Origin: Candidatus Methylomirabilis limnetica | GTDB taxonomy: Bacteria > Methylomirabilota > Methylomirabilia > Methylomirabilales > Methylomirabilaceae | DNA: 32,000 nucleotides | NCBI RefSeq assembly: GCF_003044035.1 | Contig: NZ_NVQC01000020.1 | Coordinates: 76,358 to 108,357 of the forward strand | Reading direction: 5' to 3' | In this document: piece by piece, positions 1 to 31,631 of the stretch | Layout: the number at the start of each line of letters is the position of its first letter | How positions within the stretch are numbered: position 1 is the stretch's first letter | Notes under the pieces: generated by a model | What the model was told of the DNA's origin: nothing | The model's input: only the letters and a program-made list of their open reading frames with translations | Database searches by the model: none | Translations under genes and position numbers: made by a program

Positions 1-99
1 CGACGCGATCTGAACTGTCCGGTCTGTGGTGATCATCCCACCATTACCGATCTGATCGATTACTACGAGTTTTGTGGAGTTCCCGGCGGTGGTCACTGA
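1..99 (+). CDS. 3' end of a ThiF/MoeB-type E1-like adenylyltransferase (partial, runs off the window start)
   Basis: Frame 1 reads [31 protein letters not shown]-stop (TGA 97-99). The CPxCG zinc knuckle and the ID..FCG tail are typical of MoeB/ThiF C-termini. The gene sits beside sulfur-carrier pathway genes. Confidence 0.5.
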
Positions 100-118
100 G
101 ACCGCGAACGGCGCAGCC

Positions 119-1135
119 ATGATCCGAATGATGGGCCTGGGTCTCGTTGTCGGGGCAGCCTTCGGGTACGCCCTGCAGCGTGGGCGCTTTTGCATGAACT
201 CTACGTTCCGCGATATCCTGCTGGCGCGGGATCTCACCCTGCTACGGGCCTACATCCTGGCTCTTTTGATTCAGATGGTCGGGGTCAGGGCGATGGCGAC
301 GTTGGGTCTGTTCGGGCTGGGCGTCACACCATTTTTTTGGGTAGCGACGTTGTGCGGCGGGTTCGTGTTCGGTATCGGAATGGCCTTTTCCGGTGGGTGA
401 GGGAGCGGCAGTACTTACCGGTCCGGTGAGGGGATGGTGGGTTCGATTATTGCGCTGCTCGGTTTTGTATTTGGGATCACGATGACCAATGACGGCGTTT
501 TAGAGCCGGTGCAAGTCGTCTTGCGGAGCTCCGTGGTTGAGATCGATGGGCAGCCCGCAACGCTGGATCGCCTCTTGGGCGTGAATCCATGGATACTGGT
601 AGTAACCTTCGTCATAGTTGGCGGTTGGTGGCTTCTGAAAAGCCCGGCCGGCGGCTACCAGAGAGGGTGGAGTTGGACAAGGAGCGGCATCACCATCGGT
701 CTGATAGCCACGGCTGCCTGGCCGATCTCAGCCCTGACCGGAAGGGAGTACGGTCTTTCGATCACCGAGCCGATCCGAACGATCTCGGGGTTCCTGTTCA
801 CCGGTGAGACCTCCCTGCTCACCTGGGGGAGTTTCATGTGGGTGGGGCTCATTGCGGGCGCATACGTGGCGGCGAGGTCACATGGAGAGTTTGCCTGGCG
901 CGCCCCTGGCGCTCAGCGTCTTCTCCAGGCTCTCGGGGGTGGTCTGCTGATGGGCGTGGGGGCCGGCATTGCGGGTGGATGCAACATCGGTCATGGGCTG
1001 ACTGGAGTTCCACTCTTTGGACTGAGCAGTGTGACGGCGACACTCGGTATTATCCTGGGAGTATGGGTCGGAGTCTATCTGTTGTTTGGTAGCATTGCGT
1101 TTGAGCGTGGGCCGCGAAACGCCCAGCGGGCGTAG
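119..1135 (+). CDS. yeeE: YeeE/YedE-family sulfur-compound (thiosulfate-type) transporter, one reading frame interrupted by a single in-frame TGA at 398-400
   Basis: ORFs 74..400 and 434..1135 share a frame and only the TGA separates them. Family motifs are present: QRGRFCMNSTFRD, GIGMAFSGG[TGA]GSGSTYRSGEG and GAGIAGGCNIGHGL. The protein is multi-TM and hydrophobic. The start is probably ATG 119 (MIRMMGLGL); GTG 74 would overlap the upstream gene. Confidence 0.75.
414..430 (+). promoter_or_regulatory. Candidate bacterial SECIS-like hairpin 13 nt downstream of the in-frame UGA
   Basis: CUUACC (414-419) pairs with GGUGAG (425-430) as 6 bp including one G-U pair, with apical loop GGUCC (420-424). 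It is a 17-nt element at about the spacing of the minimal E. coli fdhF SECIS, whose loop also contains GGUC (from memory). Confidence 0.3.
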
Positions 1136-2664: not shown

Positions 2665-2689
2665 GCCTGTGGTGAGCCCTGTCGAACCG

Positions 2690-3154
2690 ATGATCCATAC
2701 GCAACCGGGGCTGAACGAAATCTTCGCTCACGCCGAGGAGGCATATCCTGAAGAGGCCTGCGGGGTCGTCATAGGGAAGCCAGGCGATCCGAGTACGAAT
2801 ATTATCCGCAGATGCGCGAATCTGGCGAACCAGTATCAGCAGGACGATCCAATTCGTTATCCGAGAGATGCAAGGACCGCCTATATCATGGACCCAAAGG
2901 ACCTTCTACGGATTCAGAGCGAAGCTGATGCCAAAGGTCTTGAGTTTGTCGTTATCTACCATTCACACCCAGATCATGAAGCCTACTTCTCTGAGACCGA
3001 TCGAGACTTGGCGTTGTTCGACGGTGAACCGTTGTGGCCGCAGATGCACTATCTTGTCGTGTCAGTGAAAAATGGGAAAGTGTTGTACTTCAAAGCATTC
3101 AGGTGGGACGCGATCAAAAAAGAGTTTGCAGAAGAACCATCTGCTGTCTTTTAG
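2690..3154 (+). CDS. mec: JAMM/MPN+ metalloprotease (Mec/CysO-hydrolase-like)
   Basis: EEACGVV supplies the catalytic Glu, and HSHPDHEAYFSETD matches the HxHx7Sx2D JAMM motif exactly. The start is uncertain (ATG 2690 or GTG 2669). Confidence 0.8.
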   Translation: MIHTQPGLNEIFAHAEEAYPEEACGVVIGKPGDPSTNIIRRCANLANQYQQDDPIRYPRDARTAYIMDPKDLLRIQSEADAKGLEFVVIYHSHPDHEAYFSETDRDLALFDGEPLWPQMHYLVVSVKNGKVLYFKAFRWDAIKKEFAEEPSAVF

Positions 3155-9210: not shown

Positions 9211-9873
9211 TCAGTTCTTTGGCGGCTTCGGTAGGCGGATGGTGGGGTAGTTGGCTGTCAACCAGTGGCCAATTCCCCCCGGGACATTGCCGGCCCTTGG
9301 GAAGCCGTGGTGAAGCAGGATGCTGGCCGCCGTGCTGCTGCGCACACCTTCTTCGCAGATCAGGACGATGTGTCGACGGCGATCGAGTCCGTAAGTCTGC
9401 TGCCAGATTTCTGCAAGCGAGATGAGCAGCGAGCCTTTGATATAGCCCAGCTCCCACTCGAACGGCTCCCGCACGTCGATCAGTATCAGTTCATCGTCCG
9501 GAGCGTTCAGGCGTTGCCAGAGATCCGAGACAGACACTTGTGACAGTTGGACCAGCGGCAATCCTGCGTGGTCCCACGCCTCGGCGCCTCCAGTGACGAT
9601 TCCCTGGAGAGGATTTCGATCCACCCACTGGAGCGCATCAGCCGCGGCCTCAGCAACACCCTCCTCGCCGGAGAGGAGTATGATCGGGGGACCGGGTGGG
9701 ATCGCGGTCGCGACGCGCTCAGAGAGGCTTTTACGACTGAAGACGATGTTGATACTGCCCGGAATATGGCGTGACGCGAACTCCTTGTGCGGGCGCAGAT
9801 CGATCAGCAGCACGCCTTCGTCTAATGCGCTCTTTGCCTGATGTGGCGTCAACGTCGGTATCTCGCTTGGCAT
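9211..9873 (-). CDS. Tandem-rhodanese sulfurtransferase
   Basis: There are two rhodanese modules. The C-terminal module has the active loop LICEEGVRSS (Cx5-R/S-type), while the N-terminal module has Ser in place of Cys (LLSGEEG). The ORF is open to 9972, but MPSEIPTL (9873) is the likelier start. Confidence 0.75.
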   Translation of the reverse strand: MPSEIPTLTPHQAKSALDEGVLLIDLRPHKEFASRHIPGSINIVFSRKSLSERVATAIPPGPPIILLSGEEGVAEAAADALQWVDRNPLQGIVTGGAEAWDHAGLPLVQLSQVSVSDLWQRLNAPDDELILIDVREPFEWELGYIKGSLLISLAEIWQQTYGLDRRRHIVLICEEGVRSSTAASILLHHGFPRAGNVPGGIGHWLTANYPTIRLPKPPKN

Positions 9874-10149
9874 CGCGCTCACGCTGGTTGAGGGAAGATT
9901 ACTTTGCACATTGTGCCTTACCTCCGTGTGGAGCTTCTCCTGTGTGGAGTATACCCTGACTACGCTTGTCAATGCTATTAGGGCACACCGGCTGTTTCGT
10001 GACCGAGTAGAGGGATCCCTCTGAGGGGTGTCTTGGAGCTTTACAGTCCGGTTGAAACCCTTTATACTTCACTGCGTACGAAGGGTTCAAGCGGAATGTG
10101 GTCGAATATGTATTCACATGGAATCTAAGATCGCTCTTCGAAAGACGCA

Positions 10150-10389
10150 ATGGCGAAAAAACGCATACACTTAACGTTTACCGGTAAGCTGGCCGAGGAG
10201 CCGATCCTGTGGCAGCTTAGTCAGACCTTCAACGTGGTCTTCAATATTCGCCAGGCCGACTTTACCGAGGGAATCGGGTGGATCATGGCGGAGCTTGAGG
10301 GAGACCCTCAGCCGCTTGAGAATGGGATTACGTGGCTGGAGGATCATGGTGTCCATGTGGCGCCCATCGAGCAGGACGTCGTCTCTTAA
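10150..10389 (+). CDS. Stand-alone NIL-domain protein (paralog 1)
   Basis: The protein is 79 aa. The pattern LTF.g....EPILwqLsq.F.VvfNIrqA......G....eLeG.......gi.wL...GV.V matches the NIL domain known from MetN C-termini. Confidence 0.6.
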   Translation: MAKKRIHLTFTGKLAEEPILWQLSQTFNVVFNIRQADFTEGIGWIMAELEGDPQPLENGITWLEDHGVHVAPIEQDVVS

Positions 10390-10620
10390 GGAGATCGAGT
10401 CCTTGATTGTTGCTTGATAGGTAGCTGCTCAGGTGTTTAGGCTGAAGGCTGTAGGCTGTTAGCCGTTGCGCATGGACCAAATCAAGGCGCCTAGAACCTT
10501 TTCGGTCTCCATCATTTTCGCGTCGCATTCGGAAAACGCCTGGCTCATCGGTGCGCGTTCCTACAGTCTAAAAGATTACAGTCTATCTACCTAAGTAGTT
10601 ACCGGTGAAGGGACCATGTG

Positions 10621-10857
10621 ATGCCAAAACGGATGATCACACTCATCTACCCACAGGCACTGATCAAAGAGCCGGTGATCTATCGTCTTGCGCGTGAATT
10701 TAAGCTCATTCCTAATATTCGCCGGGCGCGAGTGACGGAGCAGGCAGGCGAGGTCATGCTGGAGTTGGACGGCGAGGAGGAAGCGTTGAATAAGGGGATT
10801 GCCTACCTGGCCGGTTTAGGGATCAGGGTGGAGCCGACTCCGGAGAAGGGACGCTGA
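10621..10857 (+). CDS. Stand-alone NIL-domain protein (paralog 2)
   Basis: The sequence LIYPQALIKEPVIYRLAREFKLIPNIRRARVTEQAGEVMLELDGEEEALNKGIAYLAGLGIRVE has the same architecture as 10150..10389. Its stop is 1 nt before the ThrC-like ATG. Confidence 0.6.
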   Translation: MPKRMITLIYPQALIKEPVIYRLAREFKLIPNIRRARVTEQAGEVMLELDGEEEALNKGIAYLAGLGIRVEPTPEKGR

Positions 10858-10858
10858 G

Positions 10859-12121
10859 ATGGCGCAGGTGAAAGGATTGAAGTGCAGGGAGTGCGGCAGA
10901 CCATATCCCGCTGAGCCTCTGCATGTCTGTGAGTTCTGTTTCGGGCCTCTTGAGGTCGATTACGATTACGACGCACTCCGCGGTACGCTGACCAGAAAAG
11001 CGATCGAGGCTGGACCGCCCAGCATCTGGCGATACAAGGCGCTGCTGCCGATCGAGGGAGAGCCCGTGGTCGGGAAACATTGCGGGATGACGCCCCTCGT
11101 GAGGGCCAAGAACCTGGCGCGCGCGTTAGGCATGCGGGAGGTCTATGTCAAAAACGATACCGTGAGCCATCCCACCTTTTCATTTAAGGATCGGGTGGTG
11201 GCGGTAGCGGTGACTAAGGCCGTGGAGTTTGGCTTCAAGGTGGTGGCCTGTGCCTCTACCGGCAACCTGGCAAACTCGGTGGCGGCCCACGCCGCCGAAG
11301 GGGGGCTTCGAAGCTTCGTCTTTGTGCCGTCCGACCTGGAGCAGGGCAAGGTGCTGGGCACCCTGATCTACAACCCAAAGCTGGTGGCCGTGGACGGCAA
11401 CTACGATGAGGTCAACCGTCTGTGCAGCGAGATTGCCGATAAATATGGATGGGCCTTTGTGAACATTAATATCCGGCCTTACTACGCTGAGGGCTCCAAA
11501 ACCTTTGGGTACGAGATCGCAGAGCAACTTGGCTGGCGTGCGCCCCAGCACATCGTTGTGCCGGCCGCGGGGGGTTCGCTGGTCACGAAGATCTTGAAGG
11601 GGCTTAAGGAGTTCGATCGACTCGGCCTCCTGAATGGCGGCTGCGCTACGCGGATGCACGTGGCCCAGGCGGAAGGGTGTGGCCCCATTGTGACCGCTAT
11701 CAAGGCGAACAGCGAGATCATTAAACCGGTCAAGCCAAAGACAATCGCCAAGTCGCTCGCCATCGGGAACCCGGCGGACGGCTACTACGCCTACAAGGTC
11801 GTCAAGGAGAGTGGTGGCCACGGGGAACATGCCACAGATGAGGAGATTGTGGAGGGTATGAAGCTGTTGGCCAGCACTGAAGGGATCTTTTCCGAGACCG
11901 CCGGCGGGGTGACGATAGCGGCGGCCAAACGGCTGATCGAGCAGGGGCGAATCCCCAGGGACGAAAGCCTGGTCCTCTGTATCACCGGCAACGGGCTGAA
12001 GACCCAGGAGGCAGTCGCCTCATCACTGAAGGTTCGGCTGCACATCAAACCGACCCTTCGAGCGTTTGATGAAGCGATGGTCTCTCATGGAATCGACGTC
12101 ACGTCGAGAACAATGGACTAA
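10859..12121 (+). CDS. Threonine-synthase-family PLP enzyme with N-terminal Zn ribbon (candidate carrier-dependent homocysteine/Cys synthase)
   Basis: CRECG...CEFCFGPLEV forms the zinc ribbon, HPTFSFKDR contains the PLP lysine, and the protein has a ThrC-like fold at 420 aa. A MoaD/ThiS-like carrier follows directly. Confidence 0.8.
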   Translation: MAQVKGLKCRECGRPYPAEPLHVCEFCFGPLEVDYDYDALRGTLTRKAIEAGPPSIWRYKALLPIEGEPVVGKHCGMTPLVRAKNLARALGMREVYVKNDTVSHPTFSFKDRVVAVAVTKAVEFGFKVVACASTGNLANSVAAHAAEGGLRSFVFVPSDLEQGKVLGTLIYNPKLVAVDGNYDEVNRLCSEIADKYGWAFVNINIRPYYAEGSKTFGYEIAEQLGWRAPQHIVVPAAGGSLVTKILKGLKEFDRLGLLNGGCATRMHVAQAEGCGPIVTAIKANSEIIKPVKPKTIAKSLAIGNPADGYYAYKVVKESGGHGEHATDEEIVEGMKLLASTEGIFSETAGGVTIAAAKRLIEQGRIPRDESLVLCITGNGLKTQEAVASSLKVRLHIKPTLRAFDEAMVSHGIDVTSRTMD

Positions 12122-19317: not shown

Positions 19318-20917
<1,600 letters not shown>

Positions 20918-20928
<11 letters not shown>

Positions 20929-22345
20929 CTGGCAGCGCTATCGAATAGGTGAGTTAGGGAAAGTTCTGACTGGACGAACTCCGCCGGGTACACACCCGGA
21001 CTATTTCGGAGATTGCATGCCGTTCCTTACTCCGACTGATATGGACGGCAGAAGGAAAGTTGAAACAACTGGACGCTCACTCTCTCAACTAGGCGTGGAT
21101 CGCCTAAGGCAGGCAATCGTTCCACATGGGGTAGCGGTGTCATGCATCGGATGGCAGATGGGCAAGCCGCTGCTTGTTGATCGACCGGTGATCACGAATC
21201 AGCAGATCAACTCGATTGTCGCGGATAGAACACGTATCGAGGAAACGTTCCTGTACTACGCACTTTTGTCTAAACGGAACGAGATCTTTGCTCTGGGAGC
21301 CGGAGGGTCTAGAACACCTATCCTCAACAAATCCGGCTTTGAGAGCATCACGATTGAGGCACCGCCGCTCCCCGAACAGCGCGCCATCGCCCACATCCTT
21401 GGCGCGCTGGACGACAAGATCGAGCTGAACCGGAGGATGAACGAGACGCTGGAGGCGATGGCGCGGGCGCTCTTCAAGTCGTGGTTCGTGGCCTTCGACC
21501 CCGTCCGCGCCAAGGCCGAAGGGCAAGCACGCCAGGATGGCGCGCGCAGCGGGCAACCAAGGAAGCCACTGAATGTGGCTTCCGACTTGCCCTGGCCTGG
21601 AGCGCAGGCAGGAGTCGGAGCGGAAGGCGACCCCGGCCTCCCCCAGCCCCTCGCCAACCTGTTCCCGGATTCCTTCCAGGACTCGGAGCTGGGGGAGATT
21701 CCGATGGGGTGGCGGGCAGGGCGACTCGACGACGTTCTGGCCGAGCTCGTTTCAGGGGCACGACCCAAGGGCGGCGCCGTGGAGGAGGGGGTACCCAGCA
21801 TCGGGGCCGAGAACGTCATCGGCTTGGGGCGCTACGACTTCTCCAAAGAGAAGTACGTGCCGCAGGAGTTTTTTGAGCGGCTCAAGCTCAATGGTGCCGC
21901 AGTGCGGGCTGGGGACGTGCTGCTCTATAAGGACGGCGCCCAGATCGGACGCAAGACGTACTTCGATTGCGATTTCCCGCACGCTGAGTGTGCGATCAAC
22001 GAGCACGTCTTCATCCTTAGGCCGAGGAGGTCCGAGGAGCAAAGGTTTCTCTTCTTCTGGCTCGATCAAGCATCGATGACACAGGAGATCGTCAGCCTGA
22101 ACTCGAACTCAGCGCAGCCTGGCATCAACCAGCCCGGAGTGCGCGGACTGCCAGTCCTCCTTCCAAAAGATGAGGTAGTCGACGCGTTCGACCAGCTGGT
22201 GGCGCGCCTGACCGCACGCCTGTTTGCCAACTGCAAGGAGTCCCGCACCCTCGCCGCCCTGCGCGACACGCTGCTACCCAAGCTCATCTCCGGCGCGCTG
22301 CGGATTGACGTTGCAGAGCGGCTTATCAAGGAGCCGACCATATGA
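20918..22345 (+). CDS. hsdS: Type I R-M specificity subunit (two TRDs)
   Basis: ATG 20918 overlaps the hsdM end by 11 nt. The central conserved helix is [41 protein letters not shown] and the distal one is [19 protein letters not shown] precedes each. Confidence 0.85.
21561..21583. repeat. Perfect 9-bp hairpin (GGAAGCCAC-TGAAT-GTGGCTTCC) inside an extra segment of about 105 nt in the hsdS inter-TRD linker
   Basis: Read directly from the sequence. The surrounding [35 protein letters not shown] lies between KAEG and DPGLP, which are normally contiguous in HsdS linkers (from memory). Confidence 0.45.
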
Positions 22346-23490
22346 ATGCACCCGATGATCTTTCCGCGCTTCACGAGAAACCCTTCGCCGACGCCGTGGT
22401 GAAGTTCGAAGAGTTGCTCGCCCAGAGCGGCCGAGCCTTCTTGATTGGGGCTGGGTGCAGCAAGTGTGCAGGACTGCCACTCACAGCCGAGCTCACCAAA
22501 GAAGCCCTCAGCAGTGACGTGCTCGACGACACGACGAAAAAAGTTCTTGCTGCGCTTCGTGATCTCTTCGCGGGCGCTGCCGACGCGAACATCGAGGACT
22601 ATCTCAGCGAACTCATTGATTTGCTGGCGATCGCTGAACGCCGGACCTCACGAGGTGCGACACAGAAGGATGTCACTCTCGGGGGAGTCTCCTATGGCGA
22701 AGCGCAGCTGCTAACGGCGGCCGATCAAATCAAGCGGGGAATCGCTGGAGTCATTGAGAGGAAGGTGTCGATCGAAACCCACCAGAGCTTTATTAGAGCT
22801 GTGCATCGCCCCCTGCGGCCAGGAAAACCTACGTCCGGTCAGACAGTGGACTACCTCGTCTTGAACTACGACACCGTACTTGAGGACGCGCTAGCCTTGG
22901 AGCGCGTCCCGTTCGCGGACGGGCTCGACGGAGGCGTGACTGGTTGGTGGAGTCCTCAGACATTCGATCGCGATGGGCTGGCCGCCCGTGTGTTCAAGCT
23001 GCACGGATCGATCAACTGGTGCGAGTTCCCAGATGACCCTTTGCCGCGGCGAGTCGGAGATCGACTTCAGATCGCGGGAGCCAAAGAGCGTCGAATCCTC
23101 ATCTGGCCGGCTTCTACCAAATATCGTGAGGCGCAGCTTGATCCGTACGCGCAACTGGCAGAGCGCGCGCGCCGCGTGCTCCGGCCAAGCGCCGGTTCCC
23201 AGTGCGTTCTGTTCGTCTGCGGGTATCGCTTCAGCGACGCTCACATCAATCTTGAGCTTGATCGCGCGCTTCGAGAATCGGGAGGAAAACTCACGATTGT
23301 TGTCTTCACTTCTGACAACGGGCCGTCTGGCCAGTTGGCAACGTGGCATAAGGACGCCGCCGTAATGGAGCAGGTACTTGTGTTCGCCAACCGAGGGTTC
23401 TTCCACGGCACCCAGTCAGCGCCCACGACGACGGACCTCCTCTGGTGGAAGTTCGAGAACATCACTCGGCTGCTTGGGGGTGAGCGATGA
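22342..23490 (+). CDS. SIR2-like (SIR2_2 / DHS-like NAD-binding) domain protein, defence-type
   Basis: FLIGAGCSKCAGLP is a GAGxS motif, LVLNYDTVLE is an NYD motif and FKLHGSINW supplies the catalytic His. ATG 22342 overlaps the hsdS stop (ATGA). Confidence 0.8.
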   Translation: MNAPDDLSALHEKPFADAVVKFEELLAQSGRAFLIGAGCSKCAGLPLTAELTKEALSSDVLDDTTKKVLAALRDLFAGAADANIEDYLSELIDLLAIAERRTSRGATQKDVTLGGVSYGEAQLLTAADQIKRGIAGVIERKVSIETHQSFIRAVHRPLRPGKPTSGQTVDYLVLNYDTVLEDALALERVPFADGLDGGVTGWWSPQTFDRDGLAARVFKLHGSINWCEFPDDPLPRRVGDRLQIAGAKERRILIWPASTKYREAQLDPYAQLAERARRVLRPSAGSQCVLFVCGYRFSDAHINLELDRALRESGGKLTIVVFTSDNGPSGQLATWHKDAAVMEQVLVFANRGFFHGTQSAPTTTDLLWWKFENITRLLGGER

Positions 23491-25244
23491 ACGCCGACAA
23501 ACGCAATCCGGCCGATCCGATTGAGAACCTGGCTATCGGCAAGATCATTGAAGTAGACGGATCCCACGTCATTGCGGAATTGGACCGCGGACTGACAGAG
23601 CTTTCTCGTGTGTATGCAGGGGAGACGTATCCAATCGGCCAGTTCGGCTCGATCGTGCGAATCCACTTCGGTCGCCGACTGATCTACGCCCTCGTGGGCC
23701 GACTCAGGATGAAGGCGGAGTACGAGTCTGAACGCGGCATCCCGTCTCAAGCCTCAGCCGATGAGAGAGTCGTCGAGGCCGACTTGTTCGGGGAGGGCGA
23801 GTGGAGCCAGGATGCGGCCGGCACCACGAAGTTAGATTTCGAGCGGGGCGTCGCGACGTATCCCCTGCCCCAACAGACGGTATATCTCACGCCCAAGTCG
23901 GAATTGCGCTCCATCTACGGGTATAAGAAGGGCGCGGTCATTCAGCTCGGCGAGCACGTTGGGTCAGGCGGCGCGCCGTGCTTTGCGGACATGAATGAAC
24001 TGCTCGGCAAGCACACTGCGGTCCTCGGTGCAACCGGAGCCGGAAAGTCCGGAGCGGTCGCAGCAATCGTTCACAGCATTCTTGACCGAGGGGCGGTTGC
24101 TGGCCACGCGAGCTGGAAACCGCAGATCGTCGTGCTCGACCCGCACAACGAATATGGCAAGGCGTTCACGGACCACAGGAGACTCTCGACGGACGAGGGC
24201 ACTCTTTCTCTCCCCTACTGGCTGTTGGACCTGGATGAAACGATCGGTCTCTTGGTCGGCAAGGCTGAGGACGCGGCTACGTCACAGTCCAACATCGTCA
24301 AGAATGCGCTGCTCACCGCGAGGATGTATTCCGCGTCGAAAGTTCTAAAGCTCGATGCGGCGAAACTCACGGTCGACGCGCCCATTCCATACTTTCTCGG
24401 TGAACCATCGGGTTTGGATGAGTTCGGTGCGATCAATGGCGTGAAGTATGAGACGGGTCTCGTCGGAGCGATCAATGCACAGAGACCAGACAACAAGGAC
24501 AAGAAGGCCCACGAGGGCTACAACAAAGTCCTGAGAAAGCTCGACTCCCTGATGAAGGACGAGCGCCTTGCGTTCATGATGAAGTCTTGGAGTGGAGCCG
24601 GCGACCCGATGACCGATGTGTTAGCTCAGTTTCTTGGTGACGGTGTTCCGGTGCGAATCGTCGACTTATCTGGAGTGCCAAACGAGGTGGCAGGGACCGC
24701 GAGCGCCGCGATAGCTCGAACCCTCTTCTCTCTAAAGGTCTGGCAGACGGCTGACGAGCGGGCGATGAGTCCGGTCTTGCTGGTTTGCGAGGAAGCCCAT
24801 CGCTACGTGCCAAATAGTGGCGAGGCGCAATACAGTGCAGCTCAGGGTGCGATCAGGCGAATCGCGAAGGAGGGCCGCAAGTACGGCATTGGATTGATGC
24901 TGGTGTCACAGCGCCCAAGCGAGGTTGAGGCGACCGTGTTGTCGCAATGTAACTCGTGGCTCGTGCTTCGCATCACGAATGAGGCTGACAGAGAACACGT
25001 CAAGGGGATTCTTCCTGATTCGATGGCTGGCCTCACGAAAATGCTGTCTGGACTTCGTCGACAGGAGGCTATTTTTGTTGGGCAGGCGGCCATGCTGCCA
25101 TCCCGAATTATGATCAGGGATCTAGCGGACGAACAGCTGCCTAAGTCGAACGACATCGACTTTGACAAGGGTTGGCAGAACGTCGGTATGTCCGCAGAGC
25201 AATTGGGGGTCGTCGCCAGTCGTTGGCGGTATCAGAAGCGATGA
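23487..25244 (+). CDS. HerA/FtsK-like (DUF87) hexameric ATPase
   Basis: An N-terminal HAS-barrel-like segment is present ([16 protein letters not shown]...GSIVRI). Walker A is GATGAGKSG, Walker B is [13 protein letters not shown], and [11 protein letters not shown] is also present. ATG 23487 overlaps the SIR2 stop (ATGA). Confidence 0.85.
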
Positions 25245-25561
25245 GCGGCAACTTCAGCGAATCCGTCGTCAAACAAGCCGCCCTGGCCTGGTTCGAAAGC
25301 CTCGGCTGGCGGGTCACGCACGGCCTCGAGATCGCGCCCGGCGAGGCCGGAGCCGAGCGGAATGACTACGGGCAGGTCGTCCTGGCGCAACGCCTGCGCG
25401 ATGCACTCGCGCGGCTCAACCCGGTGCTGCCCGCCGAGGCGCTGGAAGATGCCGTCCGCAAGCTGACGTGACCCGAAGGCGCGGAGCTTATCGTGCGCAA
25501 CCGCGCCCTACACCGCCTGCTCGTGGATGGCGTGACGGTCGGGTACCGCGAGGTGGCGGGC
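25241..25561 (+). pseudogene. hsdR: hsdR 5' remnant no. 1 (about 107 codons, with an in-frame TGA at 25469-25471)
   Basis: [25 protein letters not shown]...[18 protein letters not shown][stop][27 protein letters not shown] is collinear with the N-terminus of the full copy at 28453, and by eye roughly 80% identical in nucleotides. Similarity ends near 25561. Its ATG overlaps the HerA stop (ATGA). Confidence 0.75.
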
Positions 25562-25622
25562 GACGTCGGCGATTGGGCAAGCAGCGGGGACGGCGACACG
25601 TGCACCGCCCGTGAGGCATGAC

Positions 25623-27029
25623 ATGACAACACCGGAACAGATTGACCTCTGGCGCCAATCGCCCTCGGAGCGCCAGCGCCTGGAGTTCAAGGAGGCGAAG
25701 GCACAGTTCGACAACCGCCGGCTCTATGAGTATTGCGTGGCACTGGCAAATGAGGGTGGCGGGCATCTTCTGCTCGGCGTCGCGGACAAGCCGCCGCGCA
25801 CGGTTGTCGGCACGCAAGCTTTCAACGATCCCGTCGCGATGGCGGAGAAGCTGTTCCAGGCCGTAGGTTTTCGGGTGGATATCGACGAAGTGGCGCATCC
25901 GCACGGTCGGGTGCTGGTGTTCCACATTCCGTCGCGGCCGCGTGGCACCGCGTATCACCTGGACGGCAAATATCTGATGCGCACGGGTGAGGCGCTGGTA
26001 CCGATGAGCGAGGACCAGTTGCGGCGCATCTTCGCCGAGGGCGAGCCGGACTGGCTGGAAGAGCACACCAGAACGGGCCTCGACGCCCAGGCGGTGATCG
26101 AGTTGCTCGATACGCAGACGTTCTTCGAACTGCTGAAACTGCCGTACCCGACCGAGCGTGCCGGCGTCATCGACCGCCTCACACGCGATCGGTTGACCGA
26201 CGCGGCGAACGGCACATTCGCGATCCGCAGGCTTGGCGCTCTGCTGCTGGCGAAACGCCTTGACGACTTTACTGACCTAGCGCGCAAGGCGGCGCGCGTG
26301 GTGGTGTATTCCGGGGCATCCAAGCTGGAGACCCGGCTCGACCAGATTGGCGCCAAGGGCTACGCAGTGGGTTTCCAGGGGCTGGTGCGTTTCGTGATGA
26401 CGCAGTTGCCGCAGAACGAGGTCATCGAGGACGCACTGCGCAAGGAAGTGAAGCTCATTCCCGAGATCGTGATTCGCGAGCTCGTCGCCAATGCGCTGAT
26501 CCACCAGGACTTCACCATTGGCGGCGCATCGGTGATGGTCGAGATTTACAGCAACCGCGTCGAGATCTCCAACCCAGGCGAGCCGATCGTGCCGGTGGAA
26601 CGCTTCATCGACGGCTATCAGTCCCGTAACGAACGGCTCGCCGATCTGATGCGCCGGATGGGCATTTGCGAGGAGAAAAGCAGCGGCATTGACCGCGTGG
26701 TTCAGGCGGCCGAGGTATATCAATTGCCGGCGCCGGATTTTCGCGCCGGGCATCGGCGCACCGTTGTGACAATCTTTGGCCTGAAGCCGTTCGAAGAGAT
26801 GGATCGAAATGACCGGGTGCGGGCCTGCTACCAGCACTGTGCCTTGAAGTGGGTGATGTCCGAGCGGATGACCAACCAGTCGCTGCGTGATCGCTTCCGG
26901 CTTGCGGAGGATAAGGCGGCGATTGCGTCACAGATTATCGCGGCGACCATCGAGGCGGAGATGATCAAACCGGACGAGAGCGTAGGTACGTCGCGAAAGT
27001 TCGCCCGTTACCTGCCCTTCTGGGCATAA
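25623..27029 (+). CDS. AlbA_2 (Schlafen-like, divergent AAA_4) plus HATPase_c_4 domain protein, often annotated as RecG-like/transcriptional regulator
   Basis: The N-terminal region ESERLEFKEAKAQFD...ALANEGGGHLLLGV is AlbA_2-like. The C-terminal region IRELVANALIHQDF...VEIYSNRVEISNPG is a GHKL-like fold, with a wHTH-like tail. The alternative start is GTG 25611. Confidence 0.65.
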   Translation: MTTPEQIDLWRQSPSERQRLEFKEAKAQFDNRRLYEYCVALANEGGGHLLLGVADKPPRTVVGTQAFNDPVAMAEKLFQAVGFRVDIDEVAHPHGRVLVFHIPSRPRGTAYHLDGKYLMRTGEALVPMSEDQLRRIFAEGEPDWLEEHTRTGLDAQAVIELLDTQTFFELLKLPYPTERAGVIDRLTRDRLTDAANGTFAIRRLGALLLAKRLDDFTDLARKAARVVVYSGASKLETRLDQIGAKGYAVGFQGLVRFVMTQLPQNEVIEDALRKEVKLIPEIVIRELVANALIHQDFTIGGASVMVEIYSNRVEISNPGEPIVPVERFIDGYQSRNERLADLMRRMGICEEKSSGIDRVVQAAEVYQLPAPDFRAGHRRTVVTIFGLKPFEEMDRNDRVRACYQHCALKWVMSERMTNQSLRDRFRLAEDKAAIASQIIAATIEAEMIKPDESVGTSRKFARYLPFWA

Positions 27030-27132
27030 GAGTTATTTAAGGGCAAACTTGGAATACCACCACTTCAAGACAACAGGTCCTTTAGAATCCATATGTTGCT
27101 TATTTAAGCGTTTGCCGGAAAAGACCGACTGA

Positions 27133-27327
27133 ATGACCTCTTTCACCGAATCCGTCGTGGAGCAAGCTGCGCTGGGGTGGCTCGAGAGCGTCGGCTGGGC
27201 GGTCAAGTACGGCCCTGAGATTGGGCCTGGGGGCCAGAGGCCGAGGGGCCAGCTCCGACAGTATGATTGCGCACACCTGGAAAGGATTTTTAGCGGCGTG
27301 GTCCGGAGGACGTTGCGGATTTCTTAG
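27133..27327 (+). pseudogene. hsdR: hsdR 5' remnant no. 2 (only about 34 codons are HsdR-like)
   Basis: [34 protein letters not shown] parallels [36 protein letters not shown] of the full copy. After that the ORF is unrelated sequence ending at 27327. Confidence 0.55.
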
Positions 27328-27490
27328 GAATGGTAGCTGTATGGATAGCTTTACGGGCAGACGTTCGAGAGACACTTAGGCGGGCGCCTTCAATAGCTGA
27401 TGAACTGGACACCGCCGTCCAAAGCAGCGACTGTCTTTGCGCAGGATCTTTCAGGTAGGGGTTAGTTTCGACTAATGGCTTTTTACGCAT
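27290..27490 (-). CDS. Small ORF (66 aa) with a class-I Fic-antitoxin-like SxxxEG motif
   Basis: The sequence is [40 protein letters not shown]..., where S-SAI-E-G fits [S/T]xxxE[G/N]. It is divergent from the RhuM-Fic gene. No clear SD is present, and the start was chosen at the internal ATG 27490. Confidence 0.3.
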
Positions 27491-27578
27491 GACTATTTTG
27501 TACCACACACGGGGCGGTTGGTCACTACGAAAGCGCAATCATGAGCATTGCTCAATTCACCAAATCTGAGGTGTCTGC

Positions 27579-28452
27579 ATGACCAATTCCTCGAACGCGA
27601 TCCCCGGCGGCGAAGTCGTCGTCTACCAGGCGCCGGATGGTCAGGTGAGGGTCGAGGTGCGGCTGGAGCGGGAGACGGTCTGGCTGTCGCTGAACCAGTT
27701 GGCGGAGCTGTTCGGCCGCGACAAGTCCGTGATTTCACGGCACTTGCGGAACGTGTTCGAGTCTGGGGAGCTGGAGCGGGCGGCAACTGTTGCAAAAAAT
27801 GCAACAGTTCAAACCGAGGGGGGCCGCGGGGTCGTCCGGGAGATAGAGTTCTTCAACCTCGACGCCATCCTGTCGGTCGGATACCGAGTCAATTCCAAGT
27901 GCGGCACCCAGTTCCGCATCTGGGCTACGACCACTCTGCGCGATCATCTGCTGCGCGGCTACACGCTGAACGAGCGGCGCCTGCGGGAGCGGGGCTTGAG
28001 CGAGATCGAGCAGGCGGTTGGGCTCCTGGCACGCACCTTGACGACTCATGCCCTCGTCACGGACGAAGGGCGAGCCGTGCTGGACGTGGTGCAGCGCTAC
28101 ACCCGCTCCTGGCGCCTGTTGCTGGAGTACGACGAAGAGCGGCTGGCCGAGGTGCCGGGGAGTGCCGTGACGCCGACCGCGGCGCTCTCCCTGGACGATG
28201 CGCGGGCCGCCGCTGCAAGCTTGCGGGACGACCTCGTCGGCCGCGGCCAGGCGGGGGCGCTCTTCGGGCAGGAGCGCGGTGACGGTCTGGCGGGGATCCT
28301 CGGTGCCATGCCTTGTTGCTCCGCGCCGACGGGAACCCGCGACTCGCGGACAACGCGATGGTGGCACTGGCTCTGCTCATCGCCGAAAGCGATCCGGCGC
28401 AGAAGGATCTCATGATCCGGCTCGTGCTGAACCTCCTGGAGGACGACCCGTC

Positions 28453-28456
<4 letters not shown>
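27579..28456 (+). pseudogene. RhuM-family / Fic-DOC fusion gene with the Fic core deleted and a frame change
   Basis: The N-terminus has RhuM features (LNQLAELFGRDKSVISRHL, VGYRVNSKCGTQFRIWATTTLRDHLLRGY). The frame changes near 28305-28315. The tail in the other frame ([47 protein letters not shown]) ends in a TGA that overlaps the hsdR ATG. No HPFxDGNKR motif is found in any frame. Confidence 0.55.

Positions 28457-31631
<3,175 letters not shown>

Follow-up and report, generated by a model that had tools for sequence, protein, structure and literature searches.

How can a gene for a YeeE/TsuA-type sulfur transporter carry an in-frame UGA where its relatives carry an essential cysteine? This question is raised by a locus of Candidatus Methylomirabilis limnetica, which we examined in a stretch of 32,000 nucleotides from contig NZ_NVQC01000020.1 (positions 76,358 to 108,357 of the forward strand; hereafter the window, whose own coordinates are used below). 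The yeeE/tsuA-like coding sequence at 119–1135 is interrupted only by the UGA at 398–400. We find that the gene is intact and conserved across this codon, that the UGA occupies the alignment column of C91 in the Spirochaeta thermophila protein StYeeE, and that a hairpin just downstream co-varies with the UGA. We put the probability at roughly 0.8 that 119–1135 is one intact transporter gene in which the UGA is decoded as selenocysteine (Sec) at the middle position of a three-cysteine relay. A preliminary description made from the letters alone had proposed a Sec-containing YeeE, and this proposal is supported because the TGA recurs at the same codon in relatives, because the hairpin tracks the TGA, and because the gene is under purifying selection on both sides of it.

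The gene lies on the forward strand, as do all features described below unless stated otherwise. Two open reading frames (ORFs), 74..400 and 434..1135, share frame 2, and no stop other than the TGA at 398–400 lies between them, just as the preliminary description had reported; reading through it gives ...GIGMAFSGG[UGA]GSGSTYRSGEGMVGS... The longest ORF starts at GTG 74, gene callers start at GTG 89 and split the locus into 89–400 and 434–1135, and homologues back a start at ATG 119, from which the coding sequence has 338 codons with the proposed Sec at codon 94. For profile searches and alignments, the 338-residue product was read from ATG 119 with a Cys placeholder at the TGA. It matches PF04143 (Sulf_transp) end to end (profile positions 1–310 of 310, E 1e-78, 265.5 bits against a cut-off of 27), and its alignment to StYeeE (6LEO) spans residues 5–324 (E 4e-51), which together confirm the family assignment made in the preliminary description. 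The best-matching NCBIfam models are the TsuA/YeeE equivalogs NF052577 and NF041049, but the cut-offs of both are missed (241.3 vs 400 and 205.8 vs 645, respectively), and the protein is therefore best called TsuA-like rather than a curated equivalog. An identity of the YedE/FdhT type (NF033796, TIGR04112) was considered and rejected, as the scores fall far short (101.7 vs 350, 46.9 vs 200), coverage is partial, and the gene context differs.

The position of the UGA is best understood from the structures of YeeE. In StYeeE, the periplasmic binding site for thiosulfate is C293, from which the ion is believed to move on to C91 and then to C22 (PMC7449682). The three cysteines line the transport pathway, and C91 (C94 in E. 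coli) is essential (PMC7449682, PMC11073785). Function is lost when the equivalent positions of E. coli YeeE are replaced, and likewise in the StYeeE mutants C91A and C293A, whereas StYeeE C22A still complements (PMC7449682). On the cytoplasmic side docks YeeD, a TusA-like protein whose CPxP cysteine lies beside C22 as a fourth cysteine and takes up and decomposes thiosulfate (PMC11073785). In the full-length alignment of the window protein with StYeeE, positions C25, U94 and C288 correspond to C22, C91 and C293. The UGA at 398–400 (U94, equivalent to E. coli C94) and the codon at 191–193 for C25, the cytoplasm-side relay cysteine within GRFCMN, fall on C91 and C22 in the ungapped N-terminal block, while the codon at 980–982 for C288, the periplasm-side thiosulfate-binding cysteine within AGGCNIGHG, falls on C293. 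All three pathway-cysteine positions of PF04143 are thus kept, although at the middle one UGA stands in for the Cys codon. The placement of the UGA exactly at a conserved pathway cysteine, and the presence of the other two cysteines, both asserted in the preliminary description, are borne out by this alignment.

To place the codon in its phylogenetic setting, we aligned the site in 160 related loci fetched from species-representative genomes and metagenomes. The codon in the UGA column is TGA in 23 loci, TGC in 97 and TGT in 40. The nearest proteins and loci belong to Candidatus Methylomirabilota (NC10) and come mostly from groundwater metagenome-assembled genomes (MAGs). The TGA carriers comprise 9 species-representative genomes, all or nearly all of them Methylomirabilota MAGs, and 14 metagenome contigs; a Cys codon (TGC or TGT) is found in six NC10 loci and in every other phylum sampled. 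We resolve three TGA lineages, namely a main clade with 78–95% protein identity to the window, the pair L012 and L014 with 56–58%, and the single locus L102 with ~50%. The six NC10 loci with a Cys codon, all TGC (L001, L002, L003, L007, L084 and L088), have 83–88% identity. L102 (OBEQ012196087.1, position 491) lacks the first relay cysteine as well, with QRGPFGMTT in place of QRGRFCMN.

In the protein database, the TGA forms appear as ~36 clusters of 217–236 residues that start right after the site. The clusters that we inspected all begin at or just after Met/Leu106 (with MVGS, VGS or MGS, and in one case at a later Met), because gene callers restart there after the TGA; they are truncations. 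An exhaustive search with the N-terminal 93 residues recovered four proteins that end one residue before the Cys column (P0122, P0138, P0155 and P0255), of which P0138 corresponds to L102. The other three are divergent YeeE-like proteins of 91–97 residues ending in ...ALSGG, ...GWALG and ...VWAKG, respectively; by their sequences, they hint at N-terminal fragments of further Sec lineages outside the clade studied here.

A sequencing or assembly error could have turned TGC or TGT into TGA by a single third-position change, or the gene could have been inactivated recently, and the apparently frameshifted hsdR elsewhere in the window shows that lesions do exist in this contig. However, TGA stands at the equivalent position in 4/4 assembly copies of the locus. 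Two of these are identical to the window over their overlaps: L161 (ENA ERZ4201063, contig NODE_111, 107.6 kb, k-mer coverage ~709) over 11,135 nt and L163 (Logan SRR28254494) over 7,407 nt. L164 (JGI 3300036986) has 1 mismatch in 1,862 nt, and L162 (Logan SRR35119657) has 57 in 7,105 nt. Because these independent assemblies carry the TGA, a base-calling or assembly error is excluded, and the A at position 400, which the preliminary description had singled out as a possible misread, is supported at ~709x coverage in one of them. The TGA is moreover common to 23 loci, down to ~50% protein identity, and these do not show the signs of decay that would have spoken for a pseudogene. In the main clade, 16/16 unique TGA sequences are indel-free ORFs of 338 codons with no other stop. 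Across these 16 sequences (74–99% nucleotide identity), the ratio of nonsynonymous to synonymous differences per site (pN/pS, Nei–Gojobori method) is 0.14 for codons 1–93, 0.06 for codons 95–105 and 0.19 for codons 106–338, which indicates purifying selection in each segment. With neither further stops nor frameshifts and with strong selection on both sides of the TGA, artefact or decay is barely credible. Reassignment of UGA to a sense codon was likewise rejected, since TGA ends 5/17 genes in the window.

A second alternative is that the transporter is genuinely split, such that translation stops at the UGA to give a 93-residue peptide and restarts at ATG 434 (or GTG 437) to give a 233-residue protein, with the two assembling. 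These are exactly the two products that gene callers predict, and all relatives have an in-frame ATG, TTG or CTG followed by GTG downstream of the break. The family PF04143 also has members that come as a pair of half-size genes. The break in the window gene, however, falls at residue 94 of 338, where it cuts the conserved loop motif GGCxSG..YR.GEG and not a domain boundary or the boundary of the mid-protein repeat, and a split protein would lack the essential central cysteine. Codons 95–105, the 11 that separate the UGA from the earliest restart codon, would be untranslated, yet they are those with a pN/pS of 0.06; 5/6 of their variable sites are synonymous third positions, and Ser96 is encoded by TCC in place of AGC in L014, a two-step synonymous switch. 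Codon 106, the supposed restart, is CTG in L094 and L095, and no promoter-like site was found between the two halves. Together with the fact that the hairpin described below is tied to the TGA forms, these observations make a two-polypeptide transporter highly improbable.

We next consider the hairpin as a candidate bacterial Sec insertion sequence (bSECIS). In E. coli fdhF, the minimal element is a hairpin of ~17 nt with a GGUC-containing loop, located ~11 nt after the UGA. The preliminary description had pointed to a 17-nt hairpin, CUUACC-GGUCC-GGUGAG, 13 nt past the UGA in the window, and we recover it at 414–430. In this proposed minimal element (hairpin A), the stem CUUACC/GGUGAG encloses the loop GGUCC, which in the window is reduced to GUC by a seventh pair, G420:C424; the distance from the UGA to the loop is 19–20 nt. 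Like elements of the fdhF type, hairpin A is a coding-region stem-loop directly after the UGA with a small loop opening GG(U). Unlike them, it has no Rfam match, its main-clade form lacks a bulged U, its stem is short (6–7 bp including a G–U pair), and a longer hairpin competes with it. The bSECIS consensus of Zhang and Gladyshev (2005), as summarised in one review, has a loop of 3–9 nt whose first two nucleotides include G, an upper stem of 4–16 bp, a spacing of 16–37 nt and a minimum free energy at or below −7.5 kcal/mol (PMC13188914). Hairpin A fits this description with its stem of 6–7 bp, its spacing of 19–20 nt and an energy of −8.5 kcal/mol for 401–433, although the bare 17-mer reaches only −5.7 to −6.9 kcal/mol against the limit of −7.5.

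By itself, the hairpin carries little weight. The fold of the 81 nt from 390 to 470 is no better than that of its shuffles (z = −0.34), ~11% of arbitrary window positions have a comparable hairpin 16–37 nt downstream, and Rfam returned nothing relevant for the whole window at gathering thresholds or for 340–540 at E values up to 10. Much stronger is the comparative pattern, which exceeds chance. The 21 TGA forms of the main clade share an identical 17-mer save for loop position 5, the third position of a Ser codon, with energies of −5.7 to −6.5 kcal/mol, whereas synonymous changes have weakened it to between −0.6 and −3.2 kcal/mol in 6/6 NC10 Cys forms (6/6 have ACG or ACC for ACU, L003 has GGC for GGU, and L084 has UAU for UAC). 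Much of the SECIS sequence survives in these Cys forms, each of which has one to three synonymous changes that break it. The deeper TGA lineages have hairpins of their own: L012 and L014 carry UCUCCU(A)CC-GGUC-GGGGGAGG at −7.8 kcal/mol (−21 when extended in L014), and L102 carries GCCUUCC-GGGCGGG-GGAAGGC, a perfect 7-bp stem at −11.8 kcal/mol. The stems of the three lineages thus differ, while the apical loop of each opens with GG at one common position, 19 nt past the UGA. Overall, an uninterrupted hairpin at or below −5.7 kcal/mol is found at this site in 90% of 21 unique TGA forms versus 5% of 125 unique Cys forms, percentages that, like the associated p-values, overstate independence because the TGA forms are phylogenetically related.

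Codon choice and synonymous variation at the hairpin follow the same pattern. Of the Thr codons, ACT is the one least used by the window genes (7%), GGT accounts for 17% of Gly codons, and the codon set at the hairpin has a probability of ~0.0007 given the peptide sequence. In the TGA forms, the gene-wide minimum of synonymous diversity lies in sliding windows starting at codons 97–103, at the hairpin, with a pS of 0.17 in codons 95–105 versus 0.45–0.48 elsewhere; the Cys forms show a shallower dip (0.31 vs 0.42). The checks suggested in the preliminary description that were run thus spoke for its reading: UGA and Cys codons alternate at this column (23 vs 137) and the hairpin is kept with the TGA, though compensatory pairs are missing from the main clade.

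There is also some ambiguity as to which of two overlapping structures acts as the SECIS. Hairpin B (413–442) uses the same 5' arm as hairpin A and pairs it with UGGUGGG at 435–441, leaving GGUGAG as the apical loop. With −12.6 kcal/mol, it is the RNAalifold consensus structure, and it also fits the bSECIS consensus. We nonetheless tentatively favour hairpin A, because only the loop at its position is common to all three TGA lineages and because the common codon ACC, which would suit B as well as or better than ACU, is never seen in TGA forms; hairpin B is not conserved in L012, L014 or L102. About half of the TGA forms, including L094 and L095, have Leu in place of Met106 (AUG to UUG or CUG), a change that gives B one more pair and thereby an unbroken stem of 10 bp with −7.1 to −12.5 kcal/mol; the amino-acid change at 106 may be tuned by RNA structure.

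Several points weigh against the selenoprotein reading. Hairpins A and B are mutually exclusive, and in isolation it is B that is preferred, with a probability of 0.87 vs 0.12. Most of hairpin A is dictated by the conserved residues YRSGEG, which leave few free positions, and across the 21 main-clade TGA forms neither RNAalifold nor pair counts revealed compensatory base pairs, the stem being invariant. The relatedness of the TGA forms noted above reduces the weight of the hairpin contrast. As the transporter scores under the NCBIfam TsuA cut-offs, thiosulfate is assigned as its substrate by analogy. Finally, none of selA, selB, selC (tRNA-Sec) and selD was found in ~42 kb of this genome. The same search for Sec machinery was negative in the window and in 164 fetched loci, and ARAGORN detected no tRNA-Sec in the window and 160 loci. 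A screen of the window and the fetched loci for in-frame TGA codons opposite Cys in homologues gave no clean second Sec/Cys site near yeeE; its other hits are off-frame, low-complexity artefacts of GC-rich DNA. For the phylum as a whole, the literature points to Sec use: 63 selenoprotein genes are reported as predicted in one Methylomirabilota MAG, and group 4b hydrogenases of the Sec type have been reported in Methylomirabilota.

A further point on the same side is that nothing in the DNA separates Sec insertion from Cys insertion. The same SECIS could recode the UGA as Cys, by means of a tRNA of the tRNA-ReC (SelC*) type or of Cys-tRNA-Sec under selenium scarcity, in which case the product would be an ordinary Cys-YeeE. 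SelB- and SECIS-dependent Cys insertion at UGA by tRNA-ReC has been described and occurs in several phyla (PMC13582414, citing Vargas-Rodriguez 2018). However, canonical use of tRNA-Sec is far commoner, many selenoproteins are reported as predicted in Methylomirabilota, and it is hard to see what would be gained by keeping a UGA with its SECIS for Cys alone, since a single mutation leads to TGC, as the Cys relatives show. We consider Cys insertion very unlikely, and selenium remains the element that we infer to be inserted at 398–400.

How does this gene compare to known systems? The preliminary description implied that a Sec-containing YeeE would be new, its author knowing of no such catalogued family, but this does not hold, as "YeeE/YedE family protein, PF04143" is listed as a predicted selenoprotein family in two reviews (PMC9312934, 2022; PMC13188914, 2026). 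The later of these gives GUxSG as the Sec motif, with WP_012471001.1 as an example (PMC13188914). The main text of the two primary papers cited for the listing does not contain the names YeeE, YedE or COG2391, and the listing thus rests on the reviews. The window gene shares the Pfam family and the Sec position with the catalogued selenoprotein; its G-U-G-S-G fits GUxSG, and its UGA replaces the Cys of the GCxSG motif found in homologues, which is how the predicted YeeE/YedE selenoproteins are recognised. As in the catalogued case, the prediction is computational and builds on a Sec/Cys pair with a downstream stem-loop, and the literature searched yielded no experimental confirmation of any Sec-YeeE. 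The gene therefore adds one more member to a selenoprotein family already listed as predicted and introduces no new principle. What sets the NC10 genes apart is that they are stored as two fragments in the protein collection searched and are not annotated as selenoproteins; the window gene, which is linked to the catalogued family by Pfam family and motif, also sits in a cysteine-biosynthesis and sulfate-assimilation cluster.

When compared to the characterized YeeE/TsuA proteins of S. thermophila (6LEO, 6LEP; YeeD complex 8J4C, 8K1R) and E. coli, which the window protein resembles over its full length, the locus likewise has an adjacent gene for a TusA-like YeeD/TsuB partner. It differs in having UGA for the middle cysteine and two TusA-like genes rather than one. 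The selenium-metabolism membrane protein YedE/FdhT with its partner YedF (Lin et al. 2015, PMC5322559) is a more distant parallel, sharing the PF04143 superfamily, a TusA-like partner and a link to selenium. For YedE/FdhT, however, selenium is the proposed substrate, and a Sec residue in the protein itself is no part of its definition; the neighbours in the window, moreover, are sulfur-assimilation genes rather than selD or fdh.

The distribution of the two codons also bears on the ancestral state. In a neighbour-joining tree without support values, the NC10 Cys forms are nested in a clade with TGA forms on its deeper branches. From the sequences, Sec may be ancestral and Cys derived within the NC10 YeeE clade, and the NC10 Cys forms look like Sec-to-Cys reversions that still carry SECIS relics.

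The genes around the transporter are largely devoted to sulfur. Directly upstream, the 3' end of a ThiS–ThiF fusion gene, whose translation includes ...CPVCGDHP..., occupies 1–99; the complete gene is seen in L161 (8518–9666; PF02597 and PF00899) and encodes 382 residues that join a sulfur-carrier protein to its activating enzyme. Upstream of the fusion are a PALP enzyme and an Rrf2 regulator (L161 7101–9666 for the group as a whole). Downstream of yeeE, two genes for TusA/YeeD (TsuB)-like sulfur carriers follow: the first at 1180–1434 has a CPYP motif (PF01206, E 1e-22), and the second at 1431–1676 has a CPYT motif (PF01206) and a start that overlaps the stop of the first (ATGA). Their best NCBIfam match is TsuB/YeeD, though below its cut-off (66.6 and 51.5, respectively, vs 147.5), and the first product is the presumed cytoplasmic partner of the transporter. 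These are followed by a cysteine synthase of the CysK/M type at 1729–2664 (TIGR01136 cysKM, 352.7 bits vs a cut-off of 344) and, from a profile match, a JAMM/Prok-JAB peptidase at 2669–3154. Farther downstream are TauE, a sulfite reductase, a beta-propeller protein, CysH and an ATP sulfurylase (sat).

Several observations on this neighbourhood stand on their own. The combination of ThiS–ThiF, CysK/M and JAMM resembles a cysteine pathway of the CysO/MoeZ/Mec type wired to a transporter. Two small NIL-domain ORFs (~10150–12121 together with the gene that they precede; L161 19717–20702) come before a PALP enzyme at 10859–12121, which has an N-terminal zinc-ribbon segment like that of NinF. A further sulfur-related gene, encoding a two-domain rhodanese, lies at 9211–9972 on the opposite strand.

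Away from the sulfur genes, the window holds a defence island at 19318–28415 nested in a type I restriction-modification operon, with four genes between hsdM/hsdS (19318–22345) and hsdR. These encode a SIR2 protein (22342–23490) and a HerA ATPase (23487–25244), which form a SIR2–HerA pair, a Schlafen/AlbA_2 protein with HATPase_c_4 (25611–27029) and a RhuM/PDC-S23 protein (27579–28415). The hsdR gene for the restriction subunit (28198–31631) is split over two overlapping frames: the ORF at 28198–29451 covers positions 4–282 of the PADLOC REase_I profile, and the ORF at 29091–31631 covers positions 281–1024. This implies one frameshift near 29320–29390, which may reflect a pseudogene, slippage or an assembly error.

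If the UGA is read as Sec, a mechanism can be proposed for the transporter and its neighbours. The UGA at 398–400 would be decoded co-translationally by tRNA-Sec and SelB, recruited by the bSECIS hairpin in the next ~35–45 nt, with 414–430 as its minimal form. Sec94 would then replace the essential middle cysteine at the narrow centre of the transporter, giving the relay order C288, U94, C25. By analogy with StYeeE, thiosulfate is the likely substrate, and it, or a closely related sulfur anion, would travel from the periplasmic site by way of Sec94 to C25 and on to the active cysteine of either downstream TusA/YeeD-like protein, from which the sulfur would feed the adjacent cysteine synthase and the ThiS–ThiF/JAMM sulfur-carrier pathway. 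The chemical role of Sec94 is a matter of inference from the properties of selenium. Compared with a thiol, selenolate is the stronger nucleophile and, with its lower pKa, is ionised at neutral pH; speculatively, it could speed up the relay step or make it covalent, either by a transient Se–S bond or by a selenenyl-sulfide with C25 akin to the C22–C91 disulfide seen in the crystal.

A bolder proposal combines a changed function with the evolutionary polarity suggested above, and we hold it to be doubtful as a whole. In one version, Sec94 would alter the mechanism, with a covalent relay, via a transient Se–S bond to the sulfane sulfur of thiosulfate or a selenenyl-sulfide with C25, producing a redox-gated or catalytic pore in place of a passive relay; in the other, the clade would import selenium or mixed sulfur and selenium species such as selenosulfate. 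With either version, Sec would be ancestral in the NC10 YeeE proteins, and reversions to Cys in a Methylomirabilis oxyfera-like subgroup would have left decayed SECIS relics. If true, a membrane transporter would here present a clear natural series from Sec to Cys.

For annotation, the consequence is that this gene and some three dozen related clusters, now split into fragments of ~100 and ~233 residues, should be merged and marked as selenoproteins. Selenoproteins are rare among membrane transporters, and here Sec would occupy the very residue that crystal-structure work found indispensable. The occurrence of Sec and Cys forms at 78–95% identity within one phylum provides a natural series with which a hydrogen-bond hand-off of thiosulfate may be tested against its covalent movement. 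In ecological terms, Methylomirabilota is a groundwater phylum with large reported selenoproteomes, to which the finding would add a function in sulfur assimilation, and it would imply that sulfur uptake in these methane- or nitrite-linked bacteria depends on the supply of selenium.

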